A DNA stretch of 52,369 bases from Actinomycetes bacterium (GTDB taxonomy: Bacteria; Actinomycetota; Actinomycetes; S36-B12), in contig JBJSWO010000042.1 in the NCBI GenBank assembly GCA_046085905.1, positions 1 to 52,369 of the forward strand, read 5' to 3'. The notes under the pieces were generated by a model. That model worked only from the letters and a program-made list of their open reading frames with translations, ran no database searches and was not told the origin of the DNA. The position numbers and the translations under genes are program-made. Of the stretch, positions 12,844 to 41,676 are shown piece by piece. Positions within the stretch are counted from its first letter, which is position 1. The number at the start of each line of letters is the position of its first letter.

Positions 12844-13569
12844 ATGACTTCGAGGCGGGTACTCATAGCTATCCCCGCCTGGAACGAGCAGGGCTCGATC
12901 GCCGAAGTCATCGCTAAGGTCAAGGAGCACCTCCCCGAGGCCGGCATTCTGGTGGTGAACGACGGATCGACCGACCGCACGGCTGAGGTGGCGGCCAAGG
13001 CTGGTGCCGCGGTGGTCTCCCTGCCCTTCAACGTGGGGGTTGGCGGGGCCATGCGCACTGCTTTCCTCTACGCCAAGCGCGAGGGCTACCAGGGCCTGGT
13101 CCAGGTGGACGCCGACGGCCAGCACGACCCGGCTGATCTCGATCGGCTTCTCGTGGGGCTCGATAACGCCGACATCGTGGTGGGCACCCGCTTCCACCCG
13201 GATTCCATGTACTTCGTGGGCGGGCCGCGCCGCTGGGCCATGGTGCTGCTTTCCAAGGCCCTGAGCCGCATGAACAAGGCCACGATCAGCGACCCGACTT
13301 CAGGTTTCCGCTCGGCCGGCCCCAGGGCCATTGACTTGTTCGCGGTGAACTACCCGGCTGAGTACCTCGGCGACACGGTGGGCTCGCTCTCGATCGCCAT
13401 CCGGCACGGTCTGACGATTCACGAGGCCCCGGTCACCATGTATTACCGAGCTATCGGGCGCCCGAGCAAGAACGCATTGTGGTCGGCCCTCTACTTGGGC
13501 CGAGCGAGCCTTGCCCTTGTTGCCACGGTGCTGAAGAAGCCCAACCAGAGCAGAGGAGACGAGGCCTGA
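12844..13569 (+). CDS. GT2 polyprenyl-phosphate sugar synthase-like enzyme (PpgS / Ppm1 / GtrB class)
   Basis: 241 aa. VLIAIPAWNEQGSIAEVI...ILVVNDGSTDRTAEVA...LVQVDADGQHDP is the pattern of polyprenyl-P glycosyl synthases. Stop overlaps the start of a DUF2304-type small membrane protein. Confidence 0.65.
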   Translation: MTSRRVLIAIPAWNEQGSIAEVIAKVKEHLPEAGILVVNDGSTDRTAEVAAKAGAAVVSLPFNVGVGGAMRTAFLYAKREGYQGLVQVDADGQHDPADLDRLLVGLDNADIVVGTRFHPDSMYFVGGPRRWAMVLLSKALSRMNKATISDPTSGFRSAGPRAIDLFAVNYPAEYLGDTVGSLSIAIRHGLTIHEAPVTMYYRAIGRPSKNALWSALYLGRASLALVATVLKKPNQSRGDEA

Positions 13570-13937
13570 TGGCACCCAACATCCTCGCGGCCCTTGCTGC
13601 GCTCGTTACCTTCATCTTCATCCTTGATCTGCTCCGTCGCGGCGTGCTCAAGGAGAAGTACGCGGTGCTATGGCTCTTCTTTGCCGGCGCTGCCCTTCTT
13701 CTCGCTCTCTTCCCGCAGGTGCTCGACTGGATCAGTTTCCGGCTCGGGGTCGCCCAGCCGGTCAATCTCCTCTTCTTCATCACCATCGTGCTGCTGGTGC
13801 TCGTGAGCGTGCAGCTCAGCTACGAGCTCAGCCGCCACGAGGCGCGCATCCGCCGACTTGCGGAAGAAGTCGCCTTGCTCGATCGACGAATTGCAGATGT
13901 CGAGCCCCGTGGCCAGGAGCAGCGTGACCCTGAATGA
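13569..13937 (+). CDS. Small membrane protein, DUF2304-like partner of the GT2
   Basis: ATG 13569 overlaps the upstream TGA (tgATGg). MAPNILAALAALVTFIFILDLLRRGVLKEKYAVLWLFFAGAALLLALFPQVLDWISFRLGV... has three hydrophobic helices plus a charged helical C-terminus (RIRRLAEEVALLDRR). The listed ORF start 13479 is an out-of-context extension. Confidence 0.65.
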   Translation: MAPNILAALAALVTFIFILDLLRRGVLKEKYAVLWLFFAGAALLLALFPQVLDWISFRLGVAQPVNLLFFITIVLLVLVSVQLSYELSRHEARIRRLAEEVALLDRRIADVEPRGQEQRDPE

Positions 13938-19875: not shown

Positions 19876-21405
19876 GTGAACACTTCGCAACGTCCGGCCG
19901 GCGTCAGAGCCGAGCATGACTCCCTTGAGGGTTACCTGACTGGTGTACTCAGCGATGAGAAGCTGGCTCGGCCCCTGATGGTCTCGTTCACTCAATGGGA
20001 TTTCGCGATTGGTGCGATCGCCGAGACGATTCTCACGCTCAAGGAGATGGGCTCGCAACCCTCGCTGGCTCTGTGGTCGGACCTGACTCCTGTCAGGGAC
20101 TTCGGCTGGCAGGTGGACCACCGAGTTGCGTCATTGTTGCGTTCTCCATCCATTGATCAACGACTTCGCCGGGCCTTGCGCAGCGCGGGCGTTCCTAAGC
20201 AGTGGTTTGTCGAGCCCCCCATCCGGCGATGGTCGCCTCAGGGTGAGTTGCCCGCGCCGACCGTGACGAACAGGACTTCACTGCGAGCGCTGGAGTATCG
20301 GAACTCCCCGCTGGGGCGGGCGCTATTGCAGGTTCACCCCGACAAGAACACGCCGATCACCGATGACCACCTCTGGCCCACGAAATACGTGAAGGCCGCG
20401 ATTGAGTCCTACGCCTTCGTTTTCGATCAAACCTGTGAACTGATCAAGAAGCGAGGCATCACCTCGGTGATCGTCTATAACGGTCGATTCCTCCATGACA
20501 GCGCCGTTGCCGCGGCAGCCGAGGCCGCGAGTCTGCCAATTCTCTATTACGACTTCGGGGGACTGGATACGGACTTCGACCTCACCATCGACGAAACCCA
20601 TGATTGGTCGGCGCTGCAAGGACGAATGCTTCGCATGTATGAGAACTGGCCGGCCGAGGAGCGTGATGAGCTCGGCAGCAGCTGGTTCGAAGGGCGCATC
20701 GGCCACACCGATCCGAACAATGCCCTTTACACCGGCACGCAGAGCATCGGCCTCGGCATTGAAAGTGTTGATGATCGGCCCATTGCTGTCTACTTCAGCT
20801 CCTCCGGTGATGAGATATCCGAACTTGACCTGGATTGGAGCGAGTACTTCTTCGGACAGCCGGAGGCCTTGATCGCCGTGTCCAAGGCTTGCAGGGCAGC
20901 GGGCTATACCTTCGTTGTGCGCAGCCATCCGCATAAGCGACTGAAGCCGAAACAGGATCTGCTCGACTGGCTCGATGCAGTGGCCGCCGCTGCTCCGGAT
21001 GTACACCTGGACCCTTACTCACCGGTGGATTCCTACACGCTCATGCGCCAGGCCGATGTGGTGATCACTTACGGTTCTACAACCGGCGTTGAAGCTGGCT
21101 TTCACGGTCGCCCGGTGATCGTCATGGGCCCATCGGCCTATGACGAACTCGGTTGCGCCACCCGTGTACGCACGGAGCAGGAATTGCTCGAAGCTTTGTC
21201 GGGCACCCTGGTTTCCTCCAAGCAAGGAGCGATTCCGTACGGCCTGATGATGCGTCGCCGTGGATTCGTCTACCGATTCGTGTCTCGTCTTCCCGATGGA
21301 TCGCGTACCTTGGCGGGGGTTCCGCTGGTAGAGGCCAAACCGATGGTCAGGCACATCAGTCACCGGCTTAATCGCATGCGGATGTCATCGCTCACACGCA
21401 ATTAG
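19876..21405 (+). CDS. Capsule-synthesis (KpsC/KpsS-like) family protein; alternative is a TagF-like phosphotransferase
   Basis: VVRSHPHKR and ADVVITYGSTTGVEAGFHGRPVIVMGPSAYDELG resemble the HP...R and S-T-x-G-x-E-A / GxxxY motifs of KpsS/KpsC-type enzymes. Start set at GTG 19876 (after GAGGAG), because the listed 19759 start overlaps the upstream gene by 77 nt. Confidence 0.4.
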   Translation: MNTSQRPAGVRAEHDSLEGYLTGVLSDEKLARPLMVSFTQWDFAIGAIAETILTLKEMGSQPSLALWSDLTPVRDFGWQVDHRVASLLRSPSIDQRLRRALRSAGVPKQWFVEPPIRRWSPQGELPAPTVTNRTSLRALEYRNSPLGRALLQVHPDKNTPITDDHLWPTKYVKAAIESYAFVFDQTCELIKKRGITSVIVYNGRFLHDSAVAAAAEAASLPILYYDFGGLDTDFDLTIDETHDWSALQGRMLRMYENWPAEERDELGSSWFEGRIGHTDPNNALYTGTQSIGLGIESVDDRPIAVYFSSSGDEISELDLDWSEYFFGQPEALIAVSKACRAAGYTFVVRSHPHKRLKPKQDLLDWLDAVAAAAPDVHLDPYSPVDSYTLMRQADVVITYGSTTGVEAGFHGRPVIVMGPSAYDELGCATRVRTEQELLEALSGTLVSSKQGAIPYGLMMRRRGFVYRFVSRLPDGSRTLAGVPLVEAKPMVRHISHRLNRMRMSSLTRN

Positions 21406-21445: not shown

Positions 21446-22096
21446 ATGGCTGGCATCCGGGAGTCAATTCGGAGTCGGATCCCGTTCAGCACGGAGATCT
21501 ACGAGAGAATGTTCATGCGTCGCGGGATGGCACCTACGCAGGGCAGGGTCAAGGCCTTGATCGCGAGTGGGAATCCGATCAAGCTCGACATCGGGGGAGC
21601 CGATGCGGGTTCGAATGGCTGGACTACTCTCGACATCACTCGAGAGTGCGACCTCTTCTGGGACCTTCGGCGCGGGATTCCCTTCCCCGACTCCACCGTC
21701 GATGCGGTGTACTCGTCGCACTTCTTCGAGCACCTCTCCTATGCAGAGGGGCAGGAAATCCTGAGGGAGGGCCTCCGGGTACTGAAGCCCGGCGGGACCT
21801 TCTCCGTGTGCGTGCCCAATGCGCGGATGTACATCGAGGCTTACCTTGGCATCCGTGAGGTTCCGGACTCGTACTTTGCCTGGAAGCCGGCAATGAACCA
21901 GACGACCGCCATCGACGCGATCAACTACGTCGCCTACATGGGCGGCGAGCACAAGTACATGTTCGACATTGACAACCTCCTGCATCTCCTTGCTCAGGCA
22001 GGTTTCGTCGATGTTCAAGAGCGAGATTTCGAGCCCGGGTTGGATCGGGAGGAACGCGACTTCGAATCCATCTACGCGATCGGCGTGAAGCCCTGA
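21446..22096 (+). CDS. Class I SAM-dependent methyltransferase
   Basis: IKLDIGGADAGSNGWTTLDI, VDAVYSSHFFEHL and LREGLRVLKPGGTFSVCVPN are Methyltransf_11/23-like motifs. Confidence 0.7.
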   Translation: MAGIRESIRSRIPFSTEIYERMFMRRGMAPTQGRVKALIASGNPIKLDIGGADAGSNGWTTLDITRECDLFWDLRRGIPFPDSTVDAVYSSHFFEHLSYAEGQEILREGLRVLKPGGTFSVCVPNARMYIEAYLGIREVPDSYFAWKPAMNQTTAIDAINYVAYMGGEHKYMFDIDNLLHLLAQAGFVDVQERDFEPGLDREERDFESIYAIGVKP

Positions 22097-22100
22097 GCCA

Positions 22101-23120
22101 TTAGCTCAGCACCGAGTTGGCGTAGCGCTGAAGAACCCAGGGCATCGCGGCATAGCGCCGCTGCGTCCTTTCGGTGGGAACGAAGGCCGGTCGCTCGTAG
22201 TCCATGCCGAAGAGCGAGGTCGAGAACTCGTTCTCCAGGGCCAGTCGATCTGCGGTGATCGGTGTCTTGCCCTTGTGCAGGCCGATCGTGTCGACGGCCA
22301 TGATGGTGCCGGCAGGGCCGGTGAGTTCGTTGACATTTCCCCAGAGACCGGCTTCGTGCACTGCCTCGTCGGTCATCCTGCCATCGGGGCGCAGTGACCA
22401 GGGGATGCTTCGATGAGATTCGCGGAGGTAGATGTGGGGCCCGGTATCCGCGGTCACATCGGTGAGGTACATGAAGAACTTCAGGAACGAGAGTCGATCG
22501 CGATCCTGGTGGAACATCTGGGCGTTGAGATTGGCATCCTCTGCACGCTTGTTCGTTGTCCACCAGAAGGCAACCTCATCCATGATCACGGGCTGGTTCA
22601 GGTACTTCTGAGCGATCAAGGCGAGGGCCGGGTCGGTAGCGAAATCCTGGACCTCGGCGCAACCCAGGGCTTCGGTCTCCTCGATGTCGTAGCGTCCGAC
22701 CTGCGGTGCCGATCGCGGGTAGATCTCGGGAGCAGTGCCGGCTCCGCGGGCCACGCAGGGCACCTGCTCGGCGTAGGCGCGGATCGCATCCGTGATCGCG
22801 GTATCGGCCACTCGGTTGAAGACGTAGTAGCCATTCGCCCGCACTCCCGCCACGGCGGCATCGATTTCCGCCGGATCGATGAACGAACTCGTTGTGACAT
22901 CGGCGATCTGCCAGGCCAGCGGGTTGCGCTCGCGGATCGAGATGCGGGAGACCACCTTGCCGATGCGCGGGTCGAGGCTCATGCCCGAGCGCATGTTGAA
23001 CTGGCTCTGACCCTCGGTCTGATCGGGAGTGACTCGGGCCCGGGAGAACTTGCGGGCGGCGACAACCGTCTTCGCGAGCCGAGTCGCATTGAGGGCATTC
23101 TCGACAATTGCGTGGGCCAC
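22101..23120 (-). CDS. PhyH-family Fe(II)/2-oxoglutarate-dependent dioxygenase
   Basis: MFHQDRDRLSFLKFFMYLTDVTADTGPHIYLRESH contains the HxD iron ligands. The distal His lies in AVDTIGLHKGKTP. Length and spacing fit phytanoyl-CoA-dioxygenase-like proteins. Confidence 0.55.
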   Translation of the reverse strand: MAHAIVENALNATRLAKTVVAARKFSRARVTPDQTEGQSQFNMRSGMSLDPRIGKVVSRISIRERNPLAWQIADVTTSSFIDPAEIDAAVAGVRANGYYVFNRVADTAITDAIRAYAEQVPCVARGAGTAPEIYPRSAPQVGRYDIEETEALGCAEVQDFATDPALALIAQKYLNQPVIMDEVAFWWTTNKRAEDANLNAQMFHQDRDRLSFLKFFMYLTDVTADTGPHIYLRESHRSIPWSLRPDGRMTDEAVHEAGLWGNVNELTGPAGTIMAVDTIGLHKGKTPITADRLALENEFSTSLFGMDYERPAFVPTERTQRRYAAMPWVLQRYANSVLS

Positions 23121-23153
23121 GGCTACTCCTTGCTGCAGATGACAGAATTCTAA

Positions 23154-24089
23154 TCAGCGCGAGCGCTTGAAGCGGCGTCGGAAGGTATCCGCCGCTTTCG
23201 CACCGATGATCTGCGTGACCTCTCCGTAGGAGAGATAGGGCGCGAGAGCCTGGGGCTTGGGTGCATCAGCGGGGAGTACGCCCATTCCGCGTGAGTAGTT
23301 CGAGTTGACCACGACGGCCAGGTATCCGCGTGCGATGTCAGCCTCGGTGACTCCTCGCAGGATGTACTCGAAGTGCTGATTCTCGTGATGGAAGACCTTC
23401 ACGAGTTCCTCGCGAGAGTGGACGGGGATGACCCCCGACTTTTGCAGCCAGAAGTTGTACCAAGTGAATTCGTAGGGGGCCTCGGCGAGCGCATCCCGAT
23501 AGGTCCATTCGCGTGGCGCGAGGAAGTCGGAGACGAATGACCGCAGCACCGTGGTCGAGAACACCTGGTGCCCGTGGCAGGTCAGCATCACCGAATCGGG
23601 CAGGCCGATGATCTCGGCAATGCGAAGCAGTGCTCCTTCTCGAGACTCCCAGTACTGCGCGTAATAGCGGGGTTCGACCTTGAGCTCATTGCTCTCGACG
23701 AGAACGCTGTACGGGAAACCATCGGGTGCGAGGAAGTCGGAGGCATGGAGATCGCGGATGATGACCGCGTCGGAGTCGATGCAGAAGTAGTTCTCGGCGA
23801 GACCGAGCTCGTGGAAGGCGAGCTTGACGATCTCCTGGTTGATGTAACCGGGGCGAGTGCCGTTGAGCTCCTCAGTGACGAAGTACCCCTCCAAGGGTGA
23901 CTCATCCATCACCACGACGTGCTCGGAAGCGAGCGTTCCGAACATTGGCAAGTCATCGTTCGGCACCACGCAGAAGAGGGTCAGGCCTTCGGGATTGTGC
24001 CACGTGAAACTCTCCACCAGTCGCTGTGCGAATGCGAAGTCGCCGGAGTACGACTTCAGCATCAGCGCTATGGGGAGGCTCTCGGTCAT
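23154..24089 (-). CDS. Uncharacterised protein, DUF6492-like putative GT-A nucleotide-sugar transferase
   Basis: 311 aa. PGYINQEIVKLAFHELGLAENYFCIDSDAVII (DxD-like DSD) resembles the DUF6492 / GT8-like pattern. The assignment is from memory of the family only. Confidence 0.35.
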   Translation of the reverse strand: MTESLPIALMLKSYSGDFAFAQRLVESFTWHNPEGLTLFCVVPNDDLPMFGTLASEHVVVMDESPLEGYFVTEELNGTRPGYINQEIVKLAFHELGLAENYFCIDSDAVIIRDLHASDFLAPDGFPYSVLVESNELKVEPRYYAQYWESREGALLRIAEIIGLPDSVMLTCHGHQVFSTTVLRSFVSDFLAPREWTYRDALAEAPYEFTWYNFWLQKSGVIPVHSREELVKVFHHENQHFEYILRGVTEADIARGYLAVVVNSNYSRGMGVLPADAPKPQALAPYLSYGEVTQIIGAKAADTFRRRFKRSR

Positions 24090-24967
24090 GCAGGCTTCTT
24101 CACTGCCTCGATGAGCCCGGCCGAGCAGAGGAACATTCCTCGCCAGGTGCCTTCATGCTCGAGTGCCACCTGGGCCTTGCGGTACTCCATCGGATCGATC
24201 TGCCCGGCGAGCATTGGGTAGGCGGGGTGGTAGTTGTACCAGTGGAACTCGAGGTCGCTGTAGCCGTGAGCCTTAACGAGTTCGGCGAGCTCGAAGGGGT
24301 TGTGGAAGCGCGACAGGATCTCGTCGTATCCATCGCCGGTCGGTCGGGTGCGCAGCGGAGGCTTGTCGACTGCGAGCCGGGCATCGAGGTCGGTAGCGAC
24401 GACATCACGAATGGCGTCCGGCACGTCGACGAGCAACTCGTCGAGGATGAACTCCTTGGTGAGTCGATTGAACGTGAACATCGAGAACATCGAGTTGCGG
24501 AACTGCAATAGCAACTTTCCGCCGGGGCGAAGGAAGGAATCCATCGCCGAGACGAAAGCCGAGTCGTCGCTGACGTGCGGAATTACGCCCAGGGCCATCA
24601 CCGCGTCGAACTCGCCGACTCGTTCGCGCTCTGCGGCCATAGCCCCCGAATCCTGTGCGTCCACGTGGGTGATCGCCTCAGGATCGAGACCTCGCGCTTC
24701 CATGTTCGCCCGAGCGACCCTGACCATCTCGGGGGAGAGATCATTTCCGGCTACGCGAATGCCCGCGGCTCCGATCGCGCACAGCGGGCTCGCATCGCCG
24801 ACTCCAAGCTCGTAGACCGATGACGACCCCGCCTTGGCGAGAAGGCGCTGCACGAGCTGAAGCCTGAAGAGATTGGCCGGGTACTCCGGGTTGGTCCACA
24901 GTTGAGTCTCGTCGTACTGATCTCCGTACGTCGAGGCGCTGCCGTCGTAGTGGGATGCGACGCTCAT
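24086..24967 (-). CDS. Class I SAM-dependent methyltransferase
   Basis: SVYELGVGDASPL (motif I), FDAVMALGVIPHV and LRPGGKLLLQFRN. 4-nt overlaps with both neighbours (24086-24089 and 24964-24967). Confidence 0.75.
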   Translation of the reverse strand: MSVASHYDGSASTYGDQYDETQLWTNPEYPANLFRLQLVQRLLAKAGSSSVYELGVGDASPLCAIGAAGIRVAGNDLSPEMVRVARANMEARGLDPEAITHVDAQDSGAMAAERERVGEFDAVMALGVIPHVSDDSAFVSAMDSFLRPGGKLLLQFRNSMFSMFTFNRLTKEFILDELLVDVPDAIRDVVATDLDARLAVDKPPLRTRPTGDGYDEILSRFHNPFELAELVKAHGYSDLEFHWYNYHPAYPMLAGQIDPMEYRKAQVALEHEGTWRGMFLCSAGLIEAVKKPA

Positions 24968-26292
24968 GCGGTCACCTTTCGTGGTGCGGTCACTTCGAGC
25001 AGTCCGTGCTCGAGAAGTTCGTCGATGATCAGTTGGACATCGTCAAGTGGAACTCCGAAGAGCTCTGACATGTCCTCGGCCGAGTGCGAGCCATCAGCGT
25101 AGGCGAGAACGTTGGTGCGCAGGATGATGACATCGGACACCGTTCGCGCGTGCATCGAGTGGTAGAGACCGCGGCGCCCGAGCTGGGGCTCGCCGAGCAC
25201 AGTGGCCTGGTAGTAGGTGGCACCCTCGAATGCGAGCACGCAGTCGCGCACCAGGTCGAGGCCGCCTTGAAGACCCGTGGGAGTCACGATCGCGAGGTCA
25301 TCGAGGTGGGTGTGGTACTGGGGATAGGCCCCGTATTTCGTGCGCATGAGCGAGATCATGGGCAGATCGACACCCGGCATCCCGTACTGGCGCTCGTCGC
25401 TTCCGCGATCGAGATATGAATACACGACGGGTTGCGGCGTTCGGGCGATCAGGCGGCGAGCGATGCGGTCAAGCGGATGATTGGCCAGTCGAGAGGCCAT
25501 GTAGGAGTAGTCGCCATCGTCACCGATGCAGGTCAGGTTGTAGGCGGCAACGACATTGGCACGCAGGTGCTCGAGGTTGCGCGAGATGTAGGTGATCGCG
25601 CCGATCGTCTCCGGAGCGAAGACGAAGCGGTAGGTGTACCGACGCGATGGAAGTGACATCAGCCATTGCGCGAGGCCGACGGAGACCATCGGTCCCGAGA
25701 GCTCGTTGTTGGCCAGCGACGGGTGGCAGATATACGTCGTGATCAGCACCTCATCGGTGGTATCGCCGGGTATGACCAGTTCGCCATACGTGAGACTGCC
25801 CGCTTCGAGCGTGCTGTCGATCACCGCGTGATACTCGCCGTCGACCAATGACTCGCGTTGCTCCGCTGTCAGGCAGAAGCCCCAGGTGCGGTTGTAGTAG
25901 CTCGTCACGTAGGGGATCGCGTTGCGATGCTCGGAATCCACATGCAGATGCGGTGCAAGTTCGTCGAGGCTGAGTCGAAGGTCCACGGGAATGGAATAGC
26001 CGACCACGTGGATGTTCGAATTCGCGAAGTCGATGACTCGCGAGCCATCCGGGCCCTCCAGGTAGGCGCCCTCGATATTCCACTCGTCGGGCACGGTCCA
26101 GTCGAGCACCTGGGTGCCGCTGGGCACCTCGGTCACCCTCAACCCGGGCAGCTCCTCCTGGAGGATGGCGAAAGTCTCCCGAACCCCGTTGCCGGTCAGG
26201 CTCCGGCAGATGGGGAAGAGCCGAGTGGCGAGGTCGTGAAGGCGCTGGCCCTCGGCGGGCGGCGTCAGCGCGTCGTCGATGGAGGCGGGCAC
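24964..26292 (-). CDS. DUF4910 / aminopeptidase-like (COG4310-type) protein with C-terminal winged-helix-like tail
   Basis: LATRLFPICRSLTGNGVRETFAILQEE...VPSGTQVLDWTVPDEWNI...ICHPSLANNELSGPMV is the pattern of the uncharacterised aminopeptidase-like family found in polysaccharide loci. Start placed at GTG 26292 (442 aa). The 532-aa listed ORF extends into the divergent GT2 gene. Confidence 0.6.
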   Translation of the reverse strand: MPASIDDALTPPAEGQRLHDLATRLFPICRSLTGNGVRETFAILQEELPGLRVTEVPSGTQVLDWTVPDEWNIEGAYLEGPDGSRVIDFANSNIHVVGYSIPVDLRLSLDELAPHLHVDSEHRNAIPYVTSYYNRTWGFCLTAEQRESLVDGEYHAVIDSTLEAGSLTYGELVIPGDTTDEVLITTYICHPSLANNELSGPMVSVGLAQWLMSLPSRRYTYRFVFAPETIGAITYISRNLEHLRANVVAAYNLTCIGDDGDYSYMASRLANHPLDRIARRLIARTPQPVVYSYLDRGSDERQYGMPGVDLPMISLMRTKYGAYPQYHTHLDDLAIVTPTGLQGGLDLVRDCVLAFEGATYYQATVLGEPQLGRRGLYHSMHARTVSDVIILRTNVLAYADGSHSAEDMSELFGVPLDDVQLIIDELLEHGLLEVTAPRKVTA

Positions 26293-26310: not shown

Positions 26311-27105
26311 GTGACATCTGAGTCGGCCGAAGCCGAGGTCCTGTTGATCGTGGCCACACTGGGCCGTCGGCCCGAGTACCTTCGCCAGACCCTCCAGTCG
26401 ATCCGCTCCCAGTCGGTCCCCGCCGACATCCTCATGGTCGCCCCCGTCGACGCACCGGGTCTGGCCGAGACGGCGGCCGAATTCGGCGTTCGCCTCCTGC
26501 CCGACCCAGGGAGCCTCCCCAAGGCCATCAATCTCGGGGCCCAGGAGGGCCTGAGGGCCCATAAATACCTCAACTGGCTCAATGACGACGATCTGCTCGA
26601 ACCGGGCTCCCTGGAGGCCACAAAAGCCGCCCTGGAGGCCGATTCCGGGGCCGTGGTCGCCTTCGGCGCCTGCCAGTACATCGACGGCCAGGGGCGACCC
26701 CTGTGGGTCAGCAAGGCCGGAAGCTGGGCCCCCCGCGTGCTCTCCTGGGGCCCTGACCTGATTCCGCAGCCGGGGATGCTCGTGCGGGCCGAGGCCTGGC
26801 GGCAGGTGGGCGGCCTCGACGCCAGCTACTCGCTGGCCTTCGATCTCGACCTGCTACTCCGCCTTAAGAAGCTCGGTCGACTGGTCGCTACCGGCACCAC
26901 GGTCTCCAGTTTCCGCTGGCATGCCGACTCCCTGACGGTCGATGACCGCACCACGAACCTGGTGGAGTCAGAGCGGGCCAAGCGAGCATCGCTCGGCCCC
27001 GCGGCCGTTCGCCTGGCCTGGTTGTGGGAGCCGCCAGTGAGGTTCGCGATTCGCCGAGCGGCCAATGCCGTTCAGCGACGTGCGCGCAAGATGAGTTCCT
27101 TGTAG
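26311..27105 (+). CDS. Family-2 glycosyltransferase
   Basis: VLLIVATLGRRPEYLRQTLQSIRSQS...YLNWLNDDDLLEPG...GMLVRAEAWRQVGGLD. Only the C-terminal 264 aa of the listed 415-aa ORF look like protein. GTG 26311 is the first plausible start clear of the opposite-strand gene. Confidence 0.7.
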   Translation: MTSESAEAEVLLIVATLGRRPEYLRQTLQSIRSQSVPADILMVAPVDAPGLAETAAEFGVRLLPDPGSLPKAINLGAQEGLRAHKYLNWLNDDDLLEPGSLEATKAALEADSGAVVAFGACQYIDGQGRPLWVSKAGSWAPRVLSWGPDLIPQPGMLVRAEAWRQVGGLDASYSLAFDLDLLLRLKKLGRLVATGTTVSSFRWHADSLTVDDRTTNLVESERAKRASLGPAAVRLAWLWEPPVRFAIRRAANAVQRRARKMSSL

Positions 27106-31599: not shown

Positions 31600-32586
31600 T
31601 CATATTCGAAGTTTAGTGAGCAAGTCTCGAATCTGATCCACGTTGAGCCAGAGGTCATTTGCATCGGAGGTGTAAGAGAATCCATCTTCAACAGGGTCTC
31701 CGGCAGGAGAATTGAACCCCCAGTCAGCGAGCGTGGGAAGAACTACATATCGGTCTGCTTGCCGCAGAGTTCGGCGGGAATCCTCCGCAGAGATCATTTC
31801 CTCGTGCAGCTTCTCGCCCGGACGAATTCCGACCTCGACAAGTTCCGCGTCCGGCGCAACCGCTCGAGCCAAATCAACGACCTTCATGCTCGGAATGCGC
31901 GGGACGTAAAGTTCACCACCGGCCATGTCGCCAAACGAGCTCATCACGAACTCGACCGCTTGGGGCAGGGTGATCCAGAATCGGGTCATGCGCATGTCTG
32001 TAATAGGCAGCGGCTGACCGGATTCTGCGAGACGACGGAAGAAGGGGATGACTGATCCTCGGCTACCCATCACATTGCCGTACCGAACTACGGAAAAGTG
32101 TGTGTCGTAACCATTTGAGTAGTGGTTGCTTGAGATAAAGAGTTTGTCAGCCGTCAGCTTAGTTGCGCCGTACAGGTTGACCGGAGACGATGCCTTGTCA
32201 GTCGACAGTGCTACGACCTTCTTGACGCCTGCTTCTATGGAAGCTTGCATGACGTTCTCGGAACCCAATATGTTTGTTTTCACGTATTCCATTGGGTTGT
32301 ATTCAGCCGTGTCGACTTGCTTGAGGGCAGCGGCGTGGACCACAAGATCAACCCCATGCAAAGCCATCTTAAGACGGTCTCGGTCGCGTATATCTCCCAA
32401 GAAGAAGCGAACACGCGGGTCATCACCCCACTGCTGTCGCAATTCGTACTGCTTGAGTTCGTCTCGAGAGAAGACCGCCACTCGACGAGGATTATGTGAC
32501 GTAAGCGCCGACTCAAGAAAGGCCTTACCGAATGATCCGGTGCCGCCAGTAAGTAGAACCGATGCATTGTCGAGGTGATCGACCAT
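31600..32586 (-). CDS. pseB: UDP-N-acetylglucosamine 4,6-dehydratase (inverting), PseB/FlaA1 type
   Basis: VLLTGGTGSFGKAFLE...VFSRDELKQYELRQQW...RVRFFLGDIRDRDRL...HAAALKQVDTAEYNPMEYVKTNILGSENV...LSTDKASSPVNLYGATKL...FSVVRYGNVMGSRGSVIPFF...ITDMRMTRFWITL...GIRPGEKLHEEM is collinear with PseB/FlaA1. Start at internal ATG 32586 (MVDHLDNASVLLTGG). Confidence 0.85.
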   Translation of the reverse strand: MVDHLDNASVLLTGGTGSFGKAFLESALTSHNPRRVAVFSRDELKQYELRQQWGDDPRVRFFLGDIRDRDRLKMALHGVDLVVHAAALKQVDTAEYNPMEYVKTNILGSENVMQASIEAGVKKVVALSTDKASSPVNLYGATKLTADKLFISSNHYSNGYDTHFSVVRYGNVMGSRGSVIPFFRRLAESGQPLPITDMRMTRFWITLPQAVEFVMSSFGDMAGGELYVPRIPSMKVVDLARAVAPDAELVEVGIRPGEKLHEEMISAEDSRRTLRQADRYVVLPTLADWGFNSPAGDPVEDGFSYTSDANDLWLNVDQIRDLLTKLRI

Positions 32587-32612
32587 TGGTACTCCTGCCA
32601 GATTTGAGCAAC

Positions 32613-33455
32613 TCAGAGCAAAGATAGATGCACCATTGCGCACCCAGTAGCGTAGGGTCGAAGCGCACTAGACTGGTGTGTTAGTGCGGAGAAACTCTCG
32701 ACCTCCAACCAACCCAATTCTGGGTCGTAGGTGTAGAAAGCTTCGTTTCGAACCTGGAATCTGGGGTCAGAAGTAAGCGTTACCCAAGACGTCTCATCAT
32801 ATTCGAACTGGTGAGTGAAAAGTCCGAGGGAATCCTCATGGAGGATCGGGAGCCCCTTGCCAGCAGGGACTGAGATGAAGAGCGAGCCACCGGAGACGAG
32901 TAGGCGCGCCGCAGCATCCAGGAAAAGTTGATCCGTTTGAGGATCCCGAATTGCGACAGCACCTTCAGGCGTTCTGGATCTAACGAAAGCAGAACTCGAG
33001 TCAGATTCGGGTGAAGCGACATCAAAGCCAATATGTTCCAAAGTAGAAACGCAGGTGATTGCGTCGTAACGTCCGTCCGACGGCTGAGCGAGGAGGAAAT
33101 CCTCTACGCGCACAGGGGTCGAGAGCACCCGGTCGACTAGATCCGTGGGGTAACGAGTTTTTACCCTTGAAGGGTTGATGATGTCAATCCCCGTGAGAAG
33201 AGTGCCGCGATCCGCCACGGCGAACAGAACACCGAGCCATTCCGGCGGTGACATGGCCCATCCCACGTCGAGAAGTCGGTTAACACCTCCGAGTTGCCCC
33301 GCTACCCAAGGAACTTCTACGCATCGCTCCGAGAAGTCGCGGGTGTCAGGCCCGCGGAGTGGAGCCAGGACTCCAGCTTGCAGGCTCGCAAGACCTGCCT
33401 TCAAGACAACTTCAGATTCTGTGTTCGAACTCGAGTTCATTTGGACCCCCTCCAT
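32613..33455 (-). CDS. Hypothetical protein with class I methyltransferase-like fold
   Basis: RLLDVGWAMSP (degenerate motif I), YDAITCVSTLEHIGFD and LLVSGGSLFISVP. The assignment is weak. Confidence 0.4.
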   Translation of the reverse strand: MEGVQMNSSSNTESEVVLKAGLASLQAGVLAPLRGPDTRDFSERCVEVPWVAGQLGGVNRLLDVGWAMSPPEWLGVLFAVADRGTLLTGIDIINPSRVKTRYPTDLVDRVLSTPVRVEDFLLAQPSDGRYDAITCVSTLEHIGFDVASPESDSSSAFVRSRTPEGAVAIRDPQTDQLFLDAAARLLVSGGSLFISVPAGKGLPILHEDSLGLFTHQFEYDETSWVTLTSDPRFQVRNEAFYTYDPELGWLEVESFSALTHQSSALRPYATGCAMVHLSLL

Positions 33456-33498
33456 ATCCGTGAAGCCTCCAACCTACCGTGCATGGCACCATTGACCT

Positions 33499-34332
33499 AT
33501 GGCGACGTTATGTCTAGGCACTGCCCAATTGGGCTCGGCTTACGGCGTGACAAATTCGCGGGGCCGATTAGGTGATGCCGATTTGGACGGGATCATTCAA
33601 ATGGCTCATGTGCATGGCATAGTTTCGATAGATACGGCCCCGGCATATGGGAACTCTCAAACGAGACTCGCTCCTTATTGCCGTGATCTCGTAATCACGA
33701 CCAAGGTGAAAGCCAATTCGCACTCACCCATGCTCGATCAGGTTCGTGCGAGTTTGAGCCAGCTCGGCGTCTCATCGGTGAGAACTCTGCTGATTCATGA
33801 CTGGTTCATGCTCGATTCGACCCGCGCGGCAGCGGCTGCTAAGGAGCTCTCAGAAATCCGAGAACTTGGACTCGTCAGCGAAATCGGAGTTTCTGGCTAC
33901 GAGCCGGCTGATATTGAGAGAGCCCTGAAAGAGTTCGACCGCCTTGATGCGGTTCAATTTCCGGCGAGTGCCCTCGACTCAAGACTCAATCAACATTCCG
34001 TTTTGGCTGATCTCAAAACGGAAGGAACTCGAATTCAGGCTCGGAGCGTATTCCTGCAGGGTCTTTTGGCCGCCGAATGCACCGTCGCACTAGGCCAGCA
34101 CGCCGATGTTGTGCGCTTCCATGCAGAGTGTCGGGAGGCAGGAATTTCATCCCTGGAAGGTGCATTGGCGGTGGTCCGGGCTCTACCTTGGGTGTCGGAG
34201 ATCATCGTCGGCGTGACGTCGGGACAAGAGCTCGGAGAGATTTTCTGTGCTTGGGATTCTCCTTTGCCAGAATTCATGAATTTCACGGCATCACAAGATC
34301 TCGCGCTTATTGATCCCCGAAACTGGGCATAA
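33499..34332 (+). CDS. Aldo/keto reductase family oxidoreductase
   Basis: LCLGTAQLGSAYG N-terminus and IDTAPAYGNSQ (the AKR Asp/Tyr signature). 277 aa. Confidence 0.7.
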   Translation: MATLCLGTAQLGSAYGVTNSRGRLGDADLDGIIQMAHVHGIVSIDTAPAYGNSQTRLAPYCRDLVITTKVKANSHSPMLDQVRASLSQLGVSSVRTLLIHDWFMLDSTRAAAAAKELSEIRELGLVSEIGVSGYEPADIERALKEFDRLDAVQFPASALDSRLNQHSVLADLKTEGTRIQARSVFLQGLLAAECTVALGQHADVVRFHAECREAGISSLEGALAVVRALPWVSEIIVGVTSGQELGEIFCAWDSPLPEFMNFTASQDLALIDPRNWA

Positions 34333-34358
34333 ATAGATCGTTCTGTGAGACTTGTCTT

Positions 34359-35135
34359 GTGACCATTCTTGCCATCGTACAAGCCCGCATGACGTCGACC
34401 CGATTCCCAGGAAAGGTACTCTCGCCTCTTCTGGGCGAGCCGATGATACTGCGCCAGCTAGAAAGGGTTTGCCGCGCAAGACACCTAGAGAGTCTCATTA
34501 TTGCCACCTCAACAGATCCGAGTGATGACCCGCTGGTTGAAGTTCTCGAAACGGCGGGCTACTCGGTTTTCCGTGGGCCCCTAGATGACGTTCTCGCCCG
34601 CTTCATTGGCGCTATCGACGACTTCCAAAGCAGGACCGGCTGCATGGTCGACGTCGTGGTCAGGTTGACAGCGGACTGCCCTTTGGCTTCCCCCGAAGTG
34701 ATCGACGAGGTCATTGATGTATTCCAATCTTCAGCGGCCGACTATGTCTCGAATACGATGACACCGACCTTTCCAGATGGCCTCGATGTGGAGGTAATCA
34801 AGGTCGAAGTGCTCCGTGAAGTTGCATCGGTGGCAATCGATCCTCCTGAGCGCGAGCATGTGACACTGGGTGTGTACAGGAGAAATAGGACGTACGCGAT
34901 CGGCAACTACAGCGATTCACGAAACAACTCCGATCTGCGTTGGACGGTGGACACGCCCGAGGACCTGGCCTTCGTTTCTCAAGTGTACGAAGCTCTATAT
35001 CCGAATGATTGTGAATTTGAATATCAGGATGTCCTGGACTACCTCCAGAATTATCCAGAAAGAAGTAGGACTATTCGGGATGCTGCCAGGAACGCAGCAC
35101 TCAAGGAAATCGACACTGGAGCCATGAATGCCTAG
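34359..35135 (+). CDS. SpsF-type cytidylyltransferase (COG1861-like, CMP-/CDP-sugar forming)
   Basis: MTILAIVQARMTSTRFPGKVLSPLLGEPMILRQLERV is the typical N-terminus of SpsF-like acylneuraminate-cytidylyltransferase-fold proteins. GTG start. Confidence 0.7.
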   Translation: MTILAIVQARMTSTRFPGKVLSPLLGEPMILRQLERVCRARHLESLIIATSTDPSDDPLVEVLETAGYSVFRGPLDDVLARFIGAIDDFQSRTGCMVDVVVRLTADCPLASPEVIDEVIDVFQSSAADYVSNTMTPTFPDGLDVEVIKVEVLREVASVAIDPPEREHVTLGVYRRNRTYAIGNYSDSRNNSDLRWTVDTPEDLAFVSQVYEALYPNDCEFEYQDVLDYLQNYPERSRTIRDAARNAALKEIDTGAMNA

Positions 35136-35145
35136 ATGGAACGGC

Positions 35146-35173
35146 AACGGGTCGGCGATTCGCCACCGTTTTT
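35146..35173 (+). terminator. Candidate rho-independent terminator or attenuator
   Basis: AACGG-gtc-GGCG-att-CGCC-a-CCGTT imperfect stem followed by a T run (35169-35173, ccgTTTTTg), 11 nt after the cytidylyltransferase stop and 11 nt before the next start. Confidence 0.3.
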
Positions 35174-35183
35174 GTGAGAGCAC

Positions 35184-36764
35184 ATGAGATCAGTGTTCGC
35201 GCAAGTTCGAAATCATTGGTTCCCAATCTCAGCGGGGCTCCTCTGCTTTGGATGGGCGCTTCTAGCCTGGCTGACTGTGATTCCAAATCAGGATCTGCTC
35301 GCGGACGGAATTCAGGTGCAAAGCTTGATTCACGATCCGCGCATCGTGCTCTCATTTCCGGGCCAAAAGCACGGAGGCACGCTCGAATACCCATTCAGCG
35401 TCTTGGCCGAGATGGTTTCTCCTGGCAACTATTTTCTCGAGTCATCCATTAGACCGGTTTTTGCTTTCCTGACGGGGTTCTTCGCCGCCTGTCTGTATAG
35501 GACGTATTTCGCGAGAGCCCCTCGCTGGTCCTTCCTCTTGGCTGTAGGAGTAGGACCAACAGTGCTTCAGGGGTTGGCCGGTCCGGTAGAAAATCCAGTA
35601 GGAGTTTGGTGGCTCAATGCTAACTACGACATTGCATGGCTTCTGGTAATCATTGGATTTTGGCTACTCGCCCGCGAAGTGACATCAACTTCTATGCATC
35701 GAGCTCGTGCGCCTCGGGTGTGGATGTTCATCCTCACAGGCTTGGTGGTTGGTCTTGGCTTTTATCAGCAGCCCACCTCCATCCTGCTGATTCTCCCCAT
35801 GGCGGTGCTCTTTCTACTTCGTTTCCGAATAAGCCTCAGACAACTCTCGATACTTCTGCTTGGAGGCCTCATCGGAATCTTTCCCGCGATATTGAGCTAC
35901 TTTCTTGCACCGATCACGACCTGGAATCCCTCTCATTTCCCTGTTTTTCGACCAGACTTGGCTTTGGCTTCTCTTGGCCTTGACGGAGTCCCGAACTACG
36001 CGATCGCGCTCCTCCCGAGCGCTCTAGGATTTGCACCTGCAACCACGATCGCAATCGCGCGTCTCCAAACCATAGTCTCAGCTCTCTTCCTTCTCTCGAT
36101 GTTGATCTTTGCGCTGGTGGGAACCGTTCATGCACTTCGTCGGCGAAGCCGAGTGTCCGAGGGGACTGCTATATCGGTTTGCTGGATTGCAGTGGCCGGA
36201 TCGATCGTCTTTTTCGGCATCTTTGTCGACCCGGTGTGGTTCTATTCGGCCCATCTCTCGATTGTCCTGTGGATGAGCATCGGAATACTTCCTCAACTAA
36301 TCAGGGTTAAATGGATTAGCCGCGCTGCACCTGTGTGCATCTGCCTCGTGGTGGCTCTCAGCACCTTGGCACAGAACGGAACGGGGGTTGTTAACCTGAA
36401 AGAGAGATTTTCGGAAAAGCGTGAGTATCTCTCGACGTTGAATGCGTACGCCTCTGAGATGAGGAAGCTTGACAGTAGGTTTCTGTACGGTTCGTACTAC
36501 GACGTACTGCCGATCGCGTATGGATCCGCTGGCTCGTTGCATCCAGTGTCAAGCACCTATAACCGATTTCCATTGCCTGACTCTGCGCTGACTGGCTTGG
36601 AAGTGGTGAAGGTTGGAATCCGAATTGATCCCACTGACGAGTGGGGGATAACAAGCCTTAGCGAGGTAAGAGAATTGTGTTCAGCTAACGCTAGATTTGT
36701 GAACGGTCAATTGGGAAGATTTCAAGTGTTCGACTGCCCAGTCTCAATACTCGGAAAACGGTAA
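35184..36764 (+). CDS. Polytopic membrane protein (~12 TM) with ~130-aa C-terminal soluble domain; candidate GT-C
   Basis: 526 aa, hydrophobic to ~aa 395, then soluble (NLKERFSEKREYLSTLNAYASEMRK...). Low-GC codon usage. No family recognised. Confidence 0.5.
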   Translation: MRSVFAQVRNHWFPISAGLLCFGWALLAWLTVIPNQDLLADGIQVQSLIHDPRIVLSFPGQKHGGTLEYPFSVLAEMVSPGNYFLESSIRPVFAFLTGFFAACLYRTYFARAPRWSFLLAVGVGPTVLQGLAGPVENPVGVWWLNANYDIAWLLVIIGFWLLAREVTSTSMHRARAPRVWMFILTGLVVGLGFYQQPTSILLILPMAVLFLLRFRISLRQLSILLLGGLIGIFPAILSYFLAPITTWNPSHFPVFRPDLALASLGLDGVPNYAIALLPSALGFAPATTIAIARLQTIVSALFLLSMLIFALVGTVHALRRRSRVSEGTAISVCWIAVAGSIVFFGIFVDPVWFYSAHLSIVLWMSIGILPQLIRVKWISRAAPVCICLVVALSTLAQNGTGVVNLKERFSEKREYLSTLNAYASEMRKLDSRFLYGSYYDVLPIAYGSAGSLHPVSSTYNRFPLPDSALTGLEVVKVGIRIDPTDEWGITSLSEVRELCSANARFVNGQLGRFQVFDCPVSILGKR

Positions 36765-36822
36765 TTCGCGTGCATTCATGCGATGCGCATTTTGAACTTG
36801 GCACATTCCCCAAGTCAAGGAG

Positions 36823-38568
36823 GTGAATGTGAAGGGTAGTTTTCAGTTGAAACGCTTTCTTGCACCATTTTTTCTCGGCGTACTCACAACTGCTTACTTC
36901 TTTCTTCCAGCGCATTACGATCCTGAGCCCTATCACGATGGATCCCAATTTGCAGGTGCGTTAGGCCTAACGGAAGGTCTGGCAACGCACGCTGAGGTCT
37001 TCAGTGCCTACGGTTTCCTAACTACCTGGATCCAGGGTGCTGCAGTTGCCATTCTCGGACCCTCGTTGCTTTCAATCCGCATTTTGACGATTCTTACTAT
37101 CCTCATTGCGGTACTTCTCACGTATTCACTCTTGAACAGTGTGCTTCGAAAGCCTTGGCTGTCAGTTCTGGCGTGCTCCGCCTGGGTTGTCATGTGGCCC
37201 GGAATCTCGGTCAATTGGGGAACCCCTCTACTGCCTTGGCCATCCCTGGTGTACTTAGATTTTCAGCTCGCCTGCGTGGTGTTGATTCTGAAGATCATTG
37301 ATGGCGTTTCGCACCCGCGGATGTACCTCTTCTTTGCGGCCTTCTTTGGTTCGTTAGCGCTTCTAACCCGCATCAATTACGGCCTCTTCTTCTGCCTTTT
37401 CATGTTGTTCGCGTTGGTTGCATTTCGTCGACACATCGGATTGAATCACGAACATTTCGCTCCTGGAATTATTGGATTTCTAAGTCCTCTAATAGTTTCT
37501 GGAGTCGTACTTCTGGCCACAAGCTCCTTGCGAGACTATGTGGAACAGTCAATTACGGGACCATTGAACGGTGCAGTAAAGACTTCAGCGACTGACTTAC
37601 TTTTCCTGGAAAACGCGTACCTACGTGCTTCGCTACCAATCTTCATCGCCCTGGGGTTTGTGTTATGGCTAAGCCGACGGTGGGATTGCGGAAGTCTAGT
37701 CTTTGGAGTGGTCATCGCTGCGGTTACGGGTGTCCTCACCGCGATAAGTACAACCGCGATTTTGGAATCACCTCTTCGAGACGCAATACTCACGCGACTT
37801 ACGTGGGCCCCAGGACTTGACACGCAGGCGATGCAAGCATGTTTTGTGTTTGCGATTGTGACGATTGCTGCAACGCTGGGCATGATCGTGGTATTGCTAG
37901 TTCGAAAGCTTGCATCTTCTCCTCGGTTTCTGAGCAAGAAGTCTTTGCCGTGGAATGGAAGCCCGATGACCTTCTATCTTCTGCTCTTGGCTGCACTCTC
38001 GTCGCTCGTGCAACTCTTTCCTATCGCGGACCCTAACCACTTGTGGTGGGCAGTCCCGCTGCCACTCGCGTTTACCTGTTTCATATTGTGTTACTCAGCA
38101 AGTAGCCGAACCACCGCGGCAGTTGCGTGTGTTCTCTTCGCACCGATGTTGCTAATTGCCCCTTTCACCGGATTTCGGTACTACGAGGTTCCTAGGTCGG
38201 AAGCCAACTCTCCTTCGCTTGCAGGAATGTATGTAAAGACCAGCCTCGCATCCGACTTTGCAAAGGTAGACGATTTTCTTGCATCCTTGGAGCCAAGGAG
38301 CACGAAGTTCCTGTGTCACGGTGGATTGTTTGCAACATGGACGGGTGAATATTTGGCGTCGGACGCCGACTATGTTGATTATGCGTATGGGACCGACCAG
38401 AGGAGTCTGGATCTTGATCCGGACTCCGTGGTTTACTGCGAAGAGAGGGGCGCTGAAGGTGCTGCTGCAGAGTACGCTGAGACGCACGGACTCCGCGTGG
38501 TCGATGAGACAGGTCCGATTTCGTTGTCCTATTTCGCTCAGGTAAACCTGGTGCGTCTCGCTCGTTAG
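36823..38568 (+). CDS. Polytopic membrane protein (~13 TM) with ~140-aa C-terminal soluble domain; candidate GT-C
   Basis: 581 aa. Strong AAGGAGG at 36817-36823, so GTG 36829 may be the true start. First loop PAHYDPEPYHDGSQFAG contains acidic residues, as in GT-C first loops. Lowest GC of the window. Confidence 0.5.
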   Translation: MNVKGSFQLKRFLAPFFLGVLTTAYFFLPAHYDPEPYHDGSQFAGALGLTEGLATHAEVFSAYGFLTTWIQGAAVAILGPSLLSIRILTILTILIAVLLTYSLLNSVLRKPWLSVLACSAWVVMWPGISVNWGTPLLPWPSLVYLDFQLACVVLILKIIDGVSHPRMYLFFAAFFGSLALLTRINYGLFFCLFMLFALVAFRRHIGLNHEHFAPGIIGFLSPLIVSGVVLLATSSLRDYVEQSITGPLNGAVKTSATDLLFLENAYLRASLPIFIALGFVLWLSRRWDCGSLVFGVVIAAVTGVLTAISTTAILESPLRDAILTRLTWAPGLDTQAMQACFVFAIVTIAATLGMIVVLLVRKLASSPRFLSKKSLPWNGSPMTFYLLLLAALSSLVQLFPIADPNHLWWAVPLPLAFTCFILCYSASSRTTAAVACVLFAPMLLIAPFTGFRYYEVPRSEANSPSLAGMYVKTSLASDFAKVDDFLASLEPRSTKFLCHGGLFATWTGEYLASDADYVDYAYGTDQRSLDLDPDSVVYCEERGAEGAAAEYAETHGLRVVDETGPISLSYFAQVNLVRLAR

Positions 38569-38590
38569 AAATCAACCACTTGGTGCGTTG

Positions 38591-39442: not shown

Positions 39443-39546
39443 AACGCTAGACTAGCCAGAGCGATTTCATTTTGCGGGAAGACATTTCAACTAGACTGTT
39501 CGCGGATAAGTGGAACTCAACTTTGGGGCCTAGTTTGAACGACAAG

Positions 39547-40536: not shown

Positions 40537-40542
40537 TTTCAG

Positions 40543-41670: not shown

Positions 41671-41676
41671 TTCGAC

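Follow-up and report, generated by a model that had tools for sequence, protein, structure and literature searches.

Two aminopeptidase-like proteins have been linked to sugar modification. Cj1295 of Campylobacter jejuni is classed as an M28-like protein with DUF2172; knock-out and knock-in strains, analysed by mass spectrometry, established that flagellin needs it for its 5-N-(2,3-di-O-methylglyceroyl) pseudaminic acid (Pse). The sugar that depends on it is Pse5(2,3-di-O-methylglyceroyl)7Ac, and the working hypothesis of its authors in 2010 was that the C5 acetamido group is cleaved (PMC3068675). In a 2026 survey of 16,130 genomes, cj1295 correlated very strongly with pse genes. The second protein, CA_C2195 of Clostridium acetobutylicum (PDB 3K9T; Das et al. 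2014), binds one zinc ion through His189, Asp195 and His324, has both essential M28 catalytic residues replaced, by Ser191 and Pro225, and has homologues in modified-carbohydrate operons together with epimerases, nucleotidyltransferases, N-acetyltransferases and S-adenosylmethionine (SAM) methylases; transacylation or amide hydrolysis on a sugar was proposed as its reaction (PMC4000134). Here we describe a relative of these proteins, gene A, and the three genes that follow it (B, C and D) in a block at positions 22101-26292 of the minus strand of contig JBJSWO010000042.1, from an Actinomycetes bacterium (assembly GCA_046085905.1, genome G000 below). The window, in what follows, is the whole 52,369-nucleotide stretch of that contig.

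Gene A encodes a DUF4910 protein, B a class I SAM methyltransferase, C a DUF6492 protein and D a PhyH-type Fe(II)/2-oxoglutarate (2OG) oxygenase. We put at roughly 0.6 the probability that the four form a modular cassette of accessory decoration genes, lying within the variable core of a large cell-envelope glycan locus and made of separable parts and not of a single obligate pathway.

Four coupled genes in a glycan supercluster

The block runs from gene A (24964-26292; 442 amino acids, GTG start) through gene B (24086-24967; 293 amino acids, ATG start) and gene C (23154-24089; 311 amino acids, ATG start) to gene D (22101-23120; 339 amino acids, GTG start), all on the minus strand. The serial arrangement that the initial annotation had described, with 4-nt overlaps or a 33-nt gap, was confirmed by inspection of the junctions: both A/B and B/C read ATGA, the ATG of B overlapping the stop of A and that of C the stop of B, while the 33-nt spacer between C and D contains a Shine-Dalgarno-like AAGGAG (23126-23131, minus strand) 5 nt before the GTG of D. 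From these junctions the four genes are predicted to be co-transcribed. The reading frame of A is open as far as 26562; since the alignment with its orthologues begins only near residue 10 of the 442-residue version and a divergent gene begins at 26311, 18 nt from the GTG at 26292, this codon is a reasonable start. Orthologues of A-D occur in related genomes at 49-83% protein identity and in identical gene order, so these are genuine genes and no chance open reading frames (ORFs). All four family assignments of the initial annotation likewise held, each by Pfam scores above the curated cut-offs. A recent foreign origin of the block was considered and rejected, as its G+C content (0.61-0.62) equals that of its flanks, unlike that of an island at 32-42 kb (0.51-0.54).

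Pfam scans of nearly all large ORFs (the exceptions being 26311-27105 and a small frame at 13479-13937), together with the ORF map, describe the whole window as a gap-free glycan supercluster. It encodes more than 15 glycosyltransferases, many of them GT2 and GT4, as well as GT-C enzymes (GT87 and PIG-V-like), a polymerase-like membrane protein of the LIC_10190 family, nucleotide-sugar genes (Gmd, fucose-synthase-like and RmlA/RmlC-like), PseB, DegT, GNAT and a CTP_transf_3 cytidylyltransferase, several methyltransferases, a KpsC/KpsS-like Capsule_synth protein and one fused MsbA-type ABC exporter. This content bears out the polysaccharide context proposed at the outset. The metagenome-assembled host genome (1.98 Mb, 76% complete) belongs to a freshwater actinobacterium, as yet uncultured, of the Nanopelagicales/acSTL type. 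Among the source names of close homologues are "acSTL", "freshwater metagenome" and "Candidatus Nanopelagicales bacterium".

The block is kept within one lineage and loses genes singly

We searched each of the four proteins in 25 genomes of the host's taxonomic family and in 16 genomes from the other families of the order. The complete ABCD block is present in five of the 25 (G000, G003, G004, G018 and G020), and eight more hold partial combinations. G006 lacks D, its A-B-C running straight into the KpsC-like gene; in G017, B lies on a contig other than that of A-C-D; G002 has two genes between A-B and D/KpsC-like, with C 20 kb away; and G024 retains only C, beside the KpsC-like gene. The remaining partial sets are more diverged: G014 carries a diverged A/B pair in reversed order (B-A) 22 kb from C-like and D-like genes, G015 an A-like gene (37% identity) and, on another contig, a C gene, and G012 and G005 only C-like and D-like paralogues, without A. 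A, C and D are all missing from the other 12 family genomes, of which one has a B orthologue only (64% identity; G010), three have only weak B-like methyltransferase matches (34-40% identity; G007, G008 and G022) and eight match none of A-D. No match to any of the four was found in the 16 genomes of the order's other families; A and B are also adjacent in G102, a genome of another family.

A scan anchored on C, covering 185,579 species genomes, returned 77 loci, and the 18 fully assessable loci of the lineage comprise 10 ABCD, 3 ABC, 1 ACD, 1 AC, 1 BC and 2 with C alone, the same gene order of the block being kept in at least 10 species-level genomes. Outside the lineage the members keep separate company. 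DUF4910 occurs in 22 of 301 sampled Actinomycetota, and neither C nor D was found in the 19 other actinobacterial DUF4910 loci with narrow hidden Markov models built from homologues at least 60% identical; the neighbours there are SDR, DegT or NeuB genes, with a B-like methyltransferase in two. A wider test on 300 other genomes of the phylum gave no hit to Pfam DUF6492 (0/300) or to the D subfamily (0/300), and A, B or D accompanied none of the 27 out-of-lineage DUF6492 loci. Where the block is split, D remains with the KpsC-like gene (G002 and L071). The most persistent adjacency is A-B, B adjoining A in eight of the ten genomes of the host family that carry A. Togetherness restricted to one lineage, combined with losses of single genes, indicates that the block is not obligate and that each gene is individually dispensable. 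The expectation of co-conservation thus held in part, for the block is kept within one freshwater actinobacterial family, while single genes are frequently lost there and the members live apart elsewhere.

These data bear directly on the idea, implied in the initial annotation, of one linear four-step pathway that needs all four proteins, A to D working one after the other towards a single hydroxylated, methylated (amino)acyl substituent. Tight translational coupling and a gene order shared by so many species-level genomes are what such a pathway would produce, and hydroxylation followed by O-methylation is chemically sensible, with di-O-methylglyceroyl-Pse as a precedent. However, the natural variants contradict it: B-C or A-B-C occurs without D (L065, L075, L084, L086, L091 and G006), A-C-D without B (L092, L094 and G017), B-C without A (L078) and C alone (G024, L080 and L088), and the absence of C/D from other actinobacterial DUF4910 loci and of A/B/D from out-of-lineage DUF6492 loci speaks against it as well. 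We therefore regard an obligate linear pathway as unlikely, and favour the cassette of separable parts.

Gene A belongs to the Cj1295/CA_C2195 family and is paired with a methyltransferase

Protein A matches DUF4910 (1.7e-94), DUF2172 (5.1e-35) and HTH_47 (3.5e-17) in Pfam, and has the architecture of its family, an M28-like DUF4910 domain with an inserted DUF2172 followed by a C-terminal HTH_47 winged helix. Its residues 15-428 align with CA_C2195 (PDB 3k9t) at E=1.5e-100. No NCBIfam model matched A, C or D, and a literature search for COG4310 returned no paper. In the alignment, H190, S192, P227 and H327 of A correspond to H189, S191, P225 and H324 of CA_C2195, so that the catalytic Asp and Glu of M28 enzymes are replaced in A by S192 and P227; the Ser is found in 37 of 38 homologues and the Pro in all 38, and H190 and H327 are conserved as well. 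The active-site stretch (residues 189-200, window 25690-25725) reads CHPSLANNE in A as against CHPSMCNDN in CA_C2195, which places N196, followed by E197, at the position of Asp195. By analogy with its two characterized relatives, A is probably a single-zinc, amidohydrolase-like enzyme, the zinc being putative.

The homologues fall into two active-site subtypes, CHPSxxNDN, with the zinc-binding Asp, and CHPSxxNNE, where Asn takes its place and a Glu follows directly. The NNE subtype includes all members of the window's lineage and three other actinobacterial loci (L049, L051 and L052), in two of which a B-like methyltransferase adjoins the DUF4910 gene.

The initial annotation had called A an aminopeptidase-like protein, and an M28-like fold with a zinc site in the homologue 3K9T would suit a true peptidase, or another protein-acting enzyme engaged for instance in glycoprotein processing or anchoring, near which sugar genes would lie because its target is glycosylated. 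Against this stand the replacement of both essential M28 catalytic residues by Ser and Pro, shared with CA_C2195, and the knock-out of Cj1295, which alters the flagellin glycan and not the polypeptide (PMC3068675); the four-gene block also holds no candidate gene for a target protein. A role of A on protein is accordingly very improbable, and the decorating cassette remains the preferred setting for it. The same precedents correct the initial statement that none of the four families has an established role in glycan assembly, which fails for DUF4910 in view of the genetics of Cj1295 (PMC3068675) and the neighbourhood-based prediction for CA_C2195 (PMC4000134). Its suggestion of trimming or attachment of an acyl group followed by methylation fared better and, by analogy, agrees with Cj1295, the sole experimental DUF4910 precedent.

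Gene B, the partner of A, is a class I methyltransferase by its match to Methyltransf_11 (1.9e-11), with Methyltransf_12, Methyltransf_25 and Methyltransf_23 also above their cut-offs. Solved sequences match it weakly, the nearest being MitM (1.2e-6), CmoM, StiD and UbiG.

Gene C is a predicted GT-A transferase of a widespread family

Protein C scores 30.5 bits against Pfam DUF6492 (PF20102; cut-off 22.9) over profile positions 8-156 of 291 only, and its close homologues carry precomputed PF20102 labels; a literature search for DUF6492 found no paper. The AlphaFold2 model has a predicted local distance difference test (pLDDT) score of 91.2 and a predicted template-modelling (TM) score (pTM) of 0.88. 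The best Foldseek match is CpsY (8J2N), the Stealth phosphotransferase of M. tuberculosis (E=2.5e-9, probability 1.00), followed by GNPTAB and the GT8 enzymes glycogenin, XXYLT1, UGGT, WbbM and LARGE1 (probability 1.00). In an alignment of 30 sequences from actinobacteria, candidate-phyla bacteria, methanogens, Firmicutes and Proteobacteria, the DxD motif D105-S106-D107 is conserved, D105 being invariant and S106 and D107 at least 90% conserved. The fold model, its matches and the conserved DxD suggest that C is a GT-A enzyme, which would transfer either a sugar, with release of UDP, or a phosphosugar, with release of UMP.

C has homologues with 39-48% identity in candidate-phyla bacteria, methanogens, Thermoplasmatales, Spirochaetia, Gammaproteobacteria, Desulfovibrio and Clostridia. 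DUF6492 recurs there in a cassette (L107-L109, L111-L113, L116, L117, L121, L134 and L140, at about 8-14 kb in each locus), in which Wzm-Wzt or Wzx is followed by C, an FkbM methyltransferase or an unknown 294-aa protein, a Methyltransf_13/14 protein of the sugar C-methyltransferase type and an unknown protein of about 390 residues. A clear gene of the C-methyltransferase type is present in 13 of the 27 out-of-lineage DUF6492 loci, and a further locus, L122, has weaker matches. As neither the C-methyltransferase nor the "unk387" partner is found in the window, C appears to have been recruited here into a new context, in which the theme of a methyltransferase beside C is kept.

One C orthologue (G004:C6:25993-26904) is reported with a single in-frame TAA, which could mark a pseudogene or an alignment-edge effect.

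Gene D is a PhyH-type oxygenase with an intact metal site

Protein D matches Pfam PhyH (PF05721) with 27.9 bits (cut-off 22). The HxD...H triad that had been noted as intact is indeed H204/D206/H282, which, with R292, is invariant in an alignment of 20 sequences that includes paralogues 24-28% identical; the equivalent positions are at least 90% conserved among 150 representatives of the subfamily. R292 is probably the basic residue that holds the C5 carboxylate of 2OG. The AlphaFold2 model (pLDDT 82) is a double-stranded beta-helix with an additional helical N-terminal region of about 80 residues, and Foldseek returned 393 matches at E<=0.001 with PhyH-type enzymes on top: SnoN came first (1e-12), followed by HygX, KanJ, AviO1, SnoK and EvdMO1. 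A profile of D against PDB sequences gave HygX as the best match (E=0.0022), while phmmer with D against the same sequences gave chance matches only.

As these structural neighbours are antibiotic-tailoring enzymes of actinomycetes, and MitM, the nearest solved sequence to B, belongs to mitomycin biosynthesis, the block could be thought to tailor a diffusible secondary metabolite, aminoglycoside- or orthosomycin-like, and no envelope glycan. The 52 kb of the window, however, contain no scaffold-forming biosynthetic enzymes and are rich in GT2/GT4 and GT-C transferases, nucleotide-sugar genes and the polymerase-like LIC_10190 protein, and the genome is small (about 2-2.6 Mb); we give this possibility very little weight.

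At E<=1e-30, the wider subfamily of D counts 206 representative clusters. Its top 150 representatives include 22 long proteins; a Pfam scan of these found an N-terminal GSCFA domain (PF08885) in seven (P0294, P0339, P0333, P0346, P0372, P0290 and P0331) and Methyltransf_11 in one. GSCFA, an uncharacterised family, belongs to the SGNH-hydrolase clan. In G012, an Acyl_transf_3 gene directly adjoins the D-like gene, and CTP_transf_3-PseB-PseC stands beside the C-like gene. The fusions and these neighbours suggest that Pse-type or diamino sugars have their substituents modified, without fixing the reaction. A fusion of D in the relatives in G014, whose stop-to-stop frames span 611-627 residues, was considered and rejected, because open frames in high-GC DNA explain the length.

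Such associations also suit a D that is not a biosynthetic hydroxylase at all, and acts as an oxidative eraser or regulator of substituents (an O- or N-demethylase, or a helper of de-acylation) opposing B or an O-acyltransferase. Fe/2OG enzymes are classic demethylases, and the seven GSCFA fusions, the one methyltransferase fusion and the adjoining Acyl_transf_3 gene fit the idea. On the other hand, the fused proteins are merely 34-40% identical to D, the D of the window is unfused and has the KpsC-like transferase as its most constant neighbour, and B is found without D as D is without B, all of which makes an eraser quite unlikely. We retain D as one separable part of the decorating cassette.

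Neighbouring genes and the wider locus

Three plus-strand genes border the block. The KpsC/KpsS-like Capsule_synth gene (19876-21405; Pfam Capsule_synth 2.8e-5), convergent with D, encodes a putative ulosonic-acid transferase; among NCBIfam models its protein matched TIGR04396 and TIGR04326, both below their cut-offs. Its orthologue in G002 (G002:C58:51416-52915) is reported with one TAG, which again could mark a pseudogene or an alignment-edge effect. A second SAM methyltransferase gene, assigned by Pfam (21446-22096), also converges on D, and its presence or absence in relatives is independent of the block. Its stop lies 4 nt from that of D, and a short imperfect inverted repeat (GCTGAGC TAATG GCTCAGG; window 22090-22115) spans both stops and could form a shared hairpin.

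On the other side, divergent from A, lies a putative GT2 glycosyltransferase gene (26311-27105). According to the tblastn and phmmer surveys, it accompanies the block constantly and stands likewise beside the D-like/C-like arrangement of distant relatives. This arrangement, which lacks A-B, is seen in L018 (G012:C7, 6269-8521 and 12125-17153) and also in L095, L097, L099, L115, L118, L119 and L130. It runs from an ABC exporter through a 713-aa protein, Acyl_transf_3, a D-like oxygenase (24-32% identity) and the orthologue of the GT2 gene at 26311 to two unknown proteins, the C-like gene, a glycosyltransferase and CTP_transf_3-PseB-PseC; a second C paralogue is often found about 6 kb away.

Further along the window, in the island at 32000-42000, the G+C content falls from about 0.62 to 0.51-0.54; the island contains PseB, the cytidylyltransferase, two polytopic proteins, a methyltransferase, a GT2, DegT and GNAT. 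A NeuB-type synthase is absent from the window. Contig C68 of the same genome encodes a NeuB+SAF nonulosonic-acid synthase (locus L142:1834-2994) in a small second glycan locus that holds GT2, RmlD-like, NeuB, GT2 and epimerase genes, so the host can probably finish a sugar of the pseudaminic or legionaminic type despite the synthase-less window. The PseB/aminotransferase/GNAT/cytidylyltransferase set of the window may thus be completed in trans by the NeuB of C68.

Discussion

The presence of a conserved gene order within one lineage, the series of single-gene losses and the separate company of DUF4910 and DUF6492 elsewhere all argue for a modular decorating cassette. Several observations weigh against this reading. 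The gene combinations were counted among relatives that share ancestry, and the counts accordingly do not represent independent events. For A, the Asn-then-Glu arrangement at the position of Asp195 is found in 24 of the 38 homologues, including the whole subclade of A, with Asp kept in the other 14 (as D-N, D-G or D-S, mostly NDN), and this exchange leaves metal binding by A an assumption. As for the partners of A, the Pfam scans of nearly all large ORFs of the window gave no match to a carrier protein, an adenylating ligase, an FkbH-like protein or an AAC(3)-type enzyme, and its ORF map leaves no gap big enough for an acyl carrier protein (ACP) gene; the partners of a carrier-protein N-acylation cassette of the Cj1295-Cj1302 type are thus absent from it, and the Campylobacter mechanism cannot be transferred whole. 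For C, the GT-A fold and the DxD motif are shared with Stealth proteins (CpsY and GNPTAB) and GT8 enzymes, whereas membership at the sequence level was found neither in Pfam nor in the PDB: the TM-scores of the fold matches are about 0.45-0.6, the Stealth CR1-CR4 and Glyco_transf_8 models gave nothing at E<=0.01, and a profile of the 30 sequences gave nothing among PDB sequences at E<=10. For D, proline hydroxylases and EctD follow close behind in the Foldseek search (6e-11, as against 1e-12 for SnoN), and with scores so nearly equal the model does no more than suggest a sugar substrate.

The reactions and substrates that we infer for A to D each carry less confidence than the cassette as a whole. 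Following Cj1295 and CA_C2195, A may open or exchange the N-acyl (acetamido) group of an amino sugar, likely a diamino-deoxy sugar derived from PseB, PseC and GNAT or a nonulosonic acid made from it, and B would methylate the product. With neither a carrier protein nor a ligase or N-acyltransferase in the window, the net change is perhaps deacetylation plus methylation and not re-acylation, so that A and B together would leave an amine, free or methylated, or else a methylated hydroxyl, rather than a new acyl group. C would add a side residue, either a sugar or a sugar-1-phosphate. D would oxidise a C-H bond of a sugar or of its substituent, resulting in hydroxylation, epimerisation or oxidative removal, and its target is probably the residue handled by the adjacent KpsC-like transferase.

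Variable tailoring genes in surface-glycan loci, including the DUF4910-methyltransferase pair, are already known from the literature. Three features are new: the pair is joined by a DUF6492 transferase and by an oxygenase of the PhyH type, carrier-protein partners are lacking, and natural variants form a gene-loss series. The block unites three families without a demonstrated reaction (DUF4910, DUF6492 and the PhyH subfamily), and its natural "knock-out" variants (ABCD, ABC, ACD, AC, BC and C alone) mean that mass differences between glycans could be mapped to single genes with no need for genetics in an organism that is uncultured. A DUF4910 protein free of carrier partners is furthermore a clean test case for N-deacylation as the core reaction of the family, as proposed for Cj1295 in 2010. 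The decoration of surface glycans governs immune recognition as well as phage adsorption and grazing, and few lake bacteria are as abundant as the freshwater actinobacteria. The practical gain is that families met repeatedly, in hundreds of glycan loci, could be annotated; no new principle is involved.

A broader proposal, which we consider doubtful but worth stating, is that D and its subfamily of about 200 clusters are envelope-glycan PhyH oxygenases capable of SnoN/HygX-like C-H oxidation (hydroxylation, epimerisation or oxidative linkage), and that DUF6492 is likewise a new cross-domain family of sugar or sugar-phosphate transferases, which, with methyltransferases as usual partners just after exporter genes, would form a module that decorates or caps chains. 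To our knowledge, such C-H oxidation has so far been documented only for antibiotics and for KdoO.

Of the known systems, CA_C2195 shares with A the three domains, the Ser/Pro replacements and the company of sugar epimerases, methylases and glycosyltransferases. The two differ in the zinc ligand, Asp195 in CA_C2195 as against Asn196 and Glu197 in A, and in their partners: in the Clostridium acetobutylicum operon the immediate neighbours are NeuB, an ATP-grasp ligase, an ACP and N-acetyltransferases (PMC4000134), which the block of the window lacks. The link of A to Cj1295 is made through shared Pfam families and statements in three papers. Both have an aminopeptidase-like domain and lie in a sugar-modification cluster (Cj1295 next to pseB and pseC), and Cj1295 affects a glycan and no peptide, with methylation in the final product; the substrate context of Cj1295 is a flagellin O-glycan, while A sits in a polymer locus rich in GT-C enzymes.

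D resembles the sugar-acting antibiotic-pathway oxygenases of nogalamycin (SnoN and SnoK), the orthosomycins (HygX, AviO1 and EvdMO1) and kanamycin (KanJ) in its double-stranded beta-helix and in the intact metal-binding residues and Arg, and differs from them in its low identity (15-19%), the extra N-terminal region of about 80 residues and its place in an envelope-glycan locus instead of an antibiotic cluster. A further parallel is KdoO, reportedly described by Chung and Raetz in 2011 as an Fe(II)/2OG Kdo 3-hydroxylase of Burkholderia and Yersinia lipopolysaccharide (LPS). D matches Pfam PhyH and no Kdo-hydroxylase family, so this is a functional analogy only, but the concept is alike: KdoO is a 2OG oxygenase that acts on an ulosonic acid of an envelope glycan, and D adjoins the KpsC/KpsS-like putative ulosonic-acid transferase.

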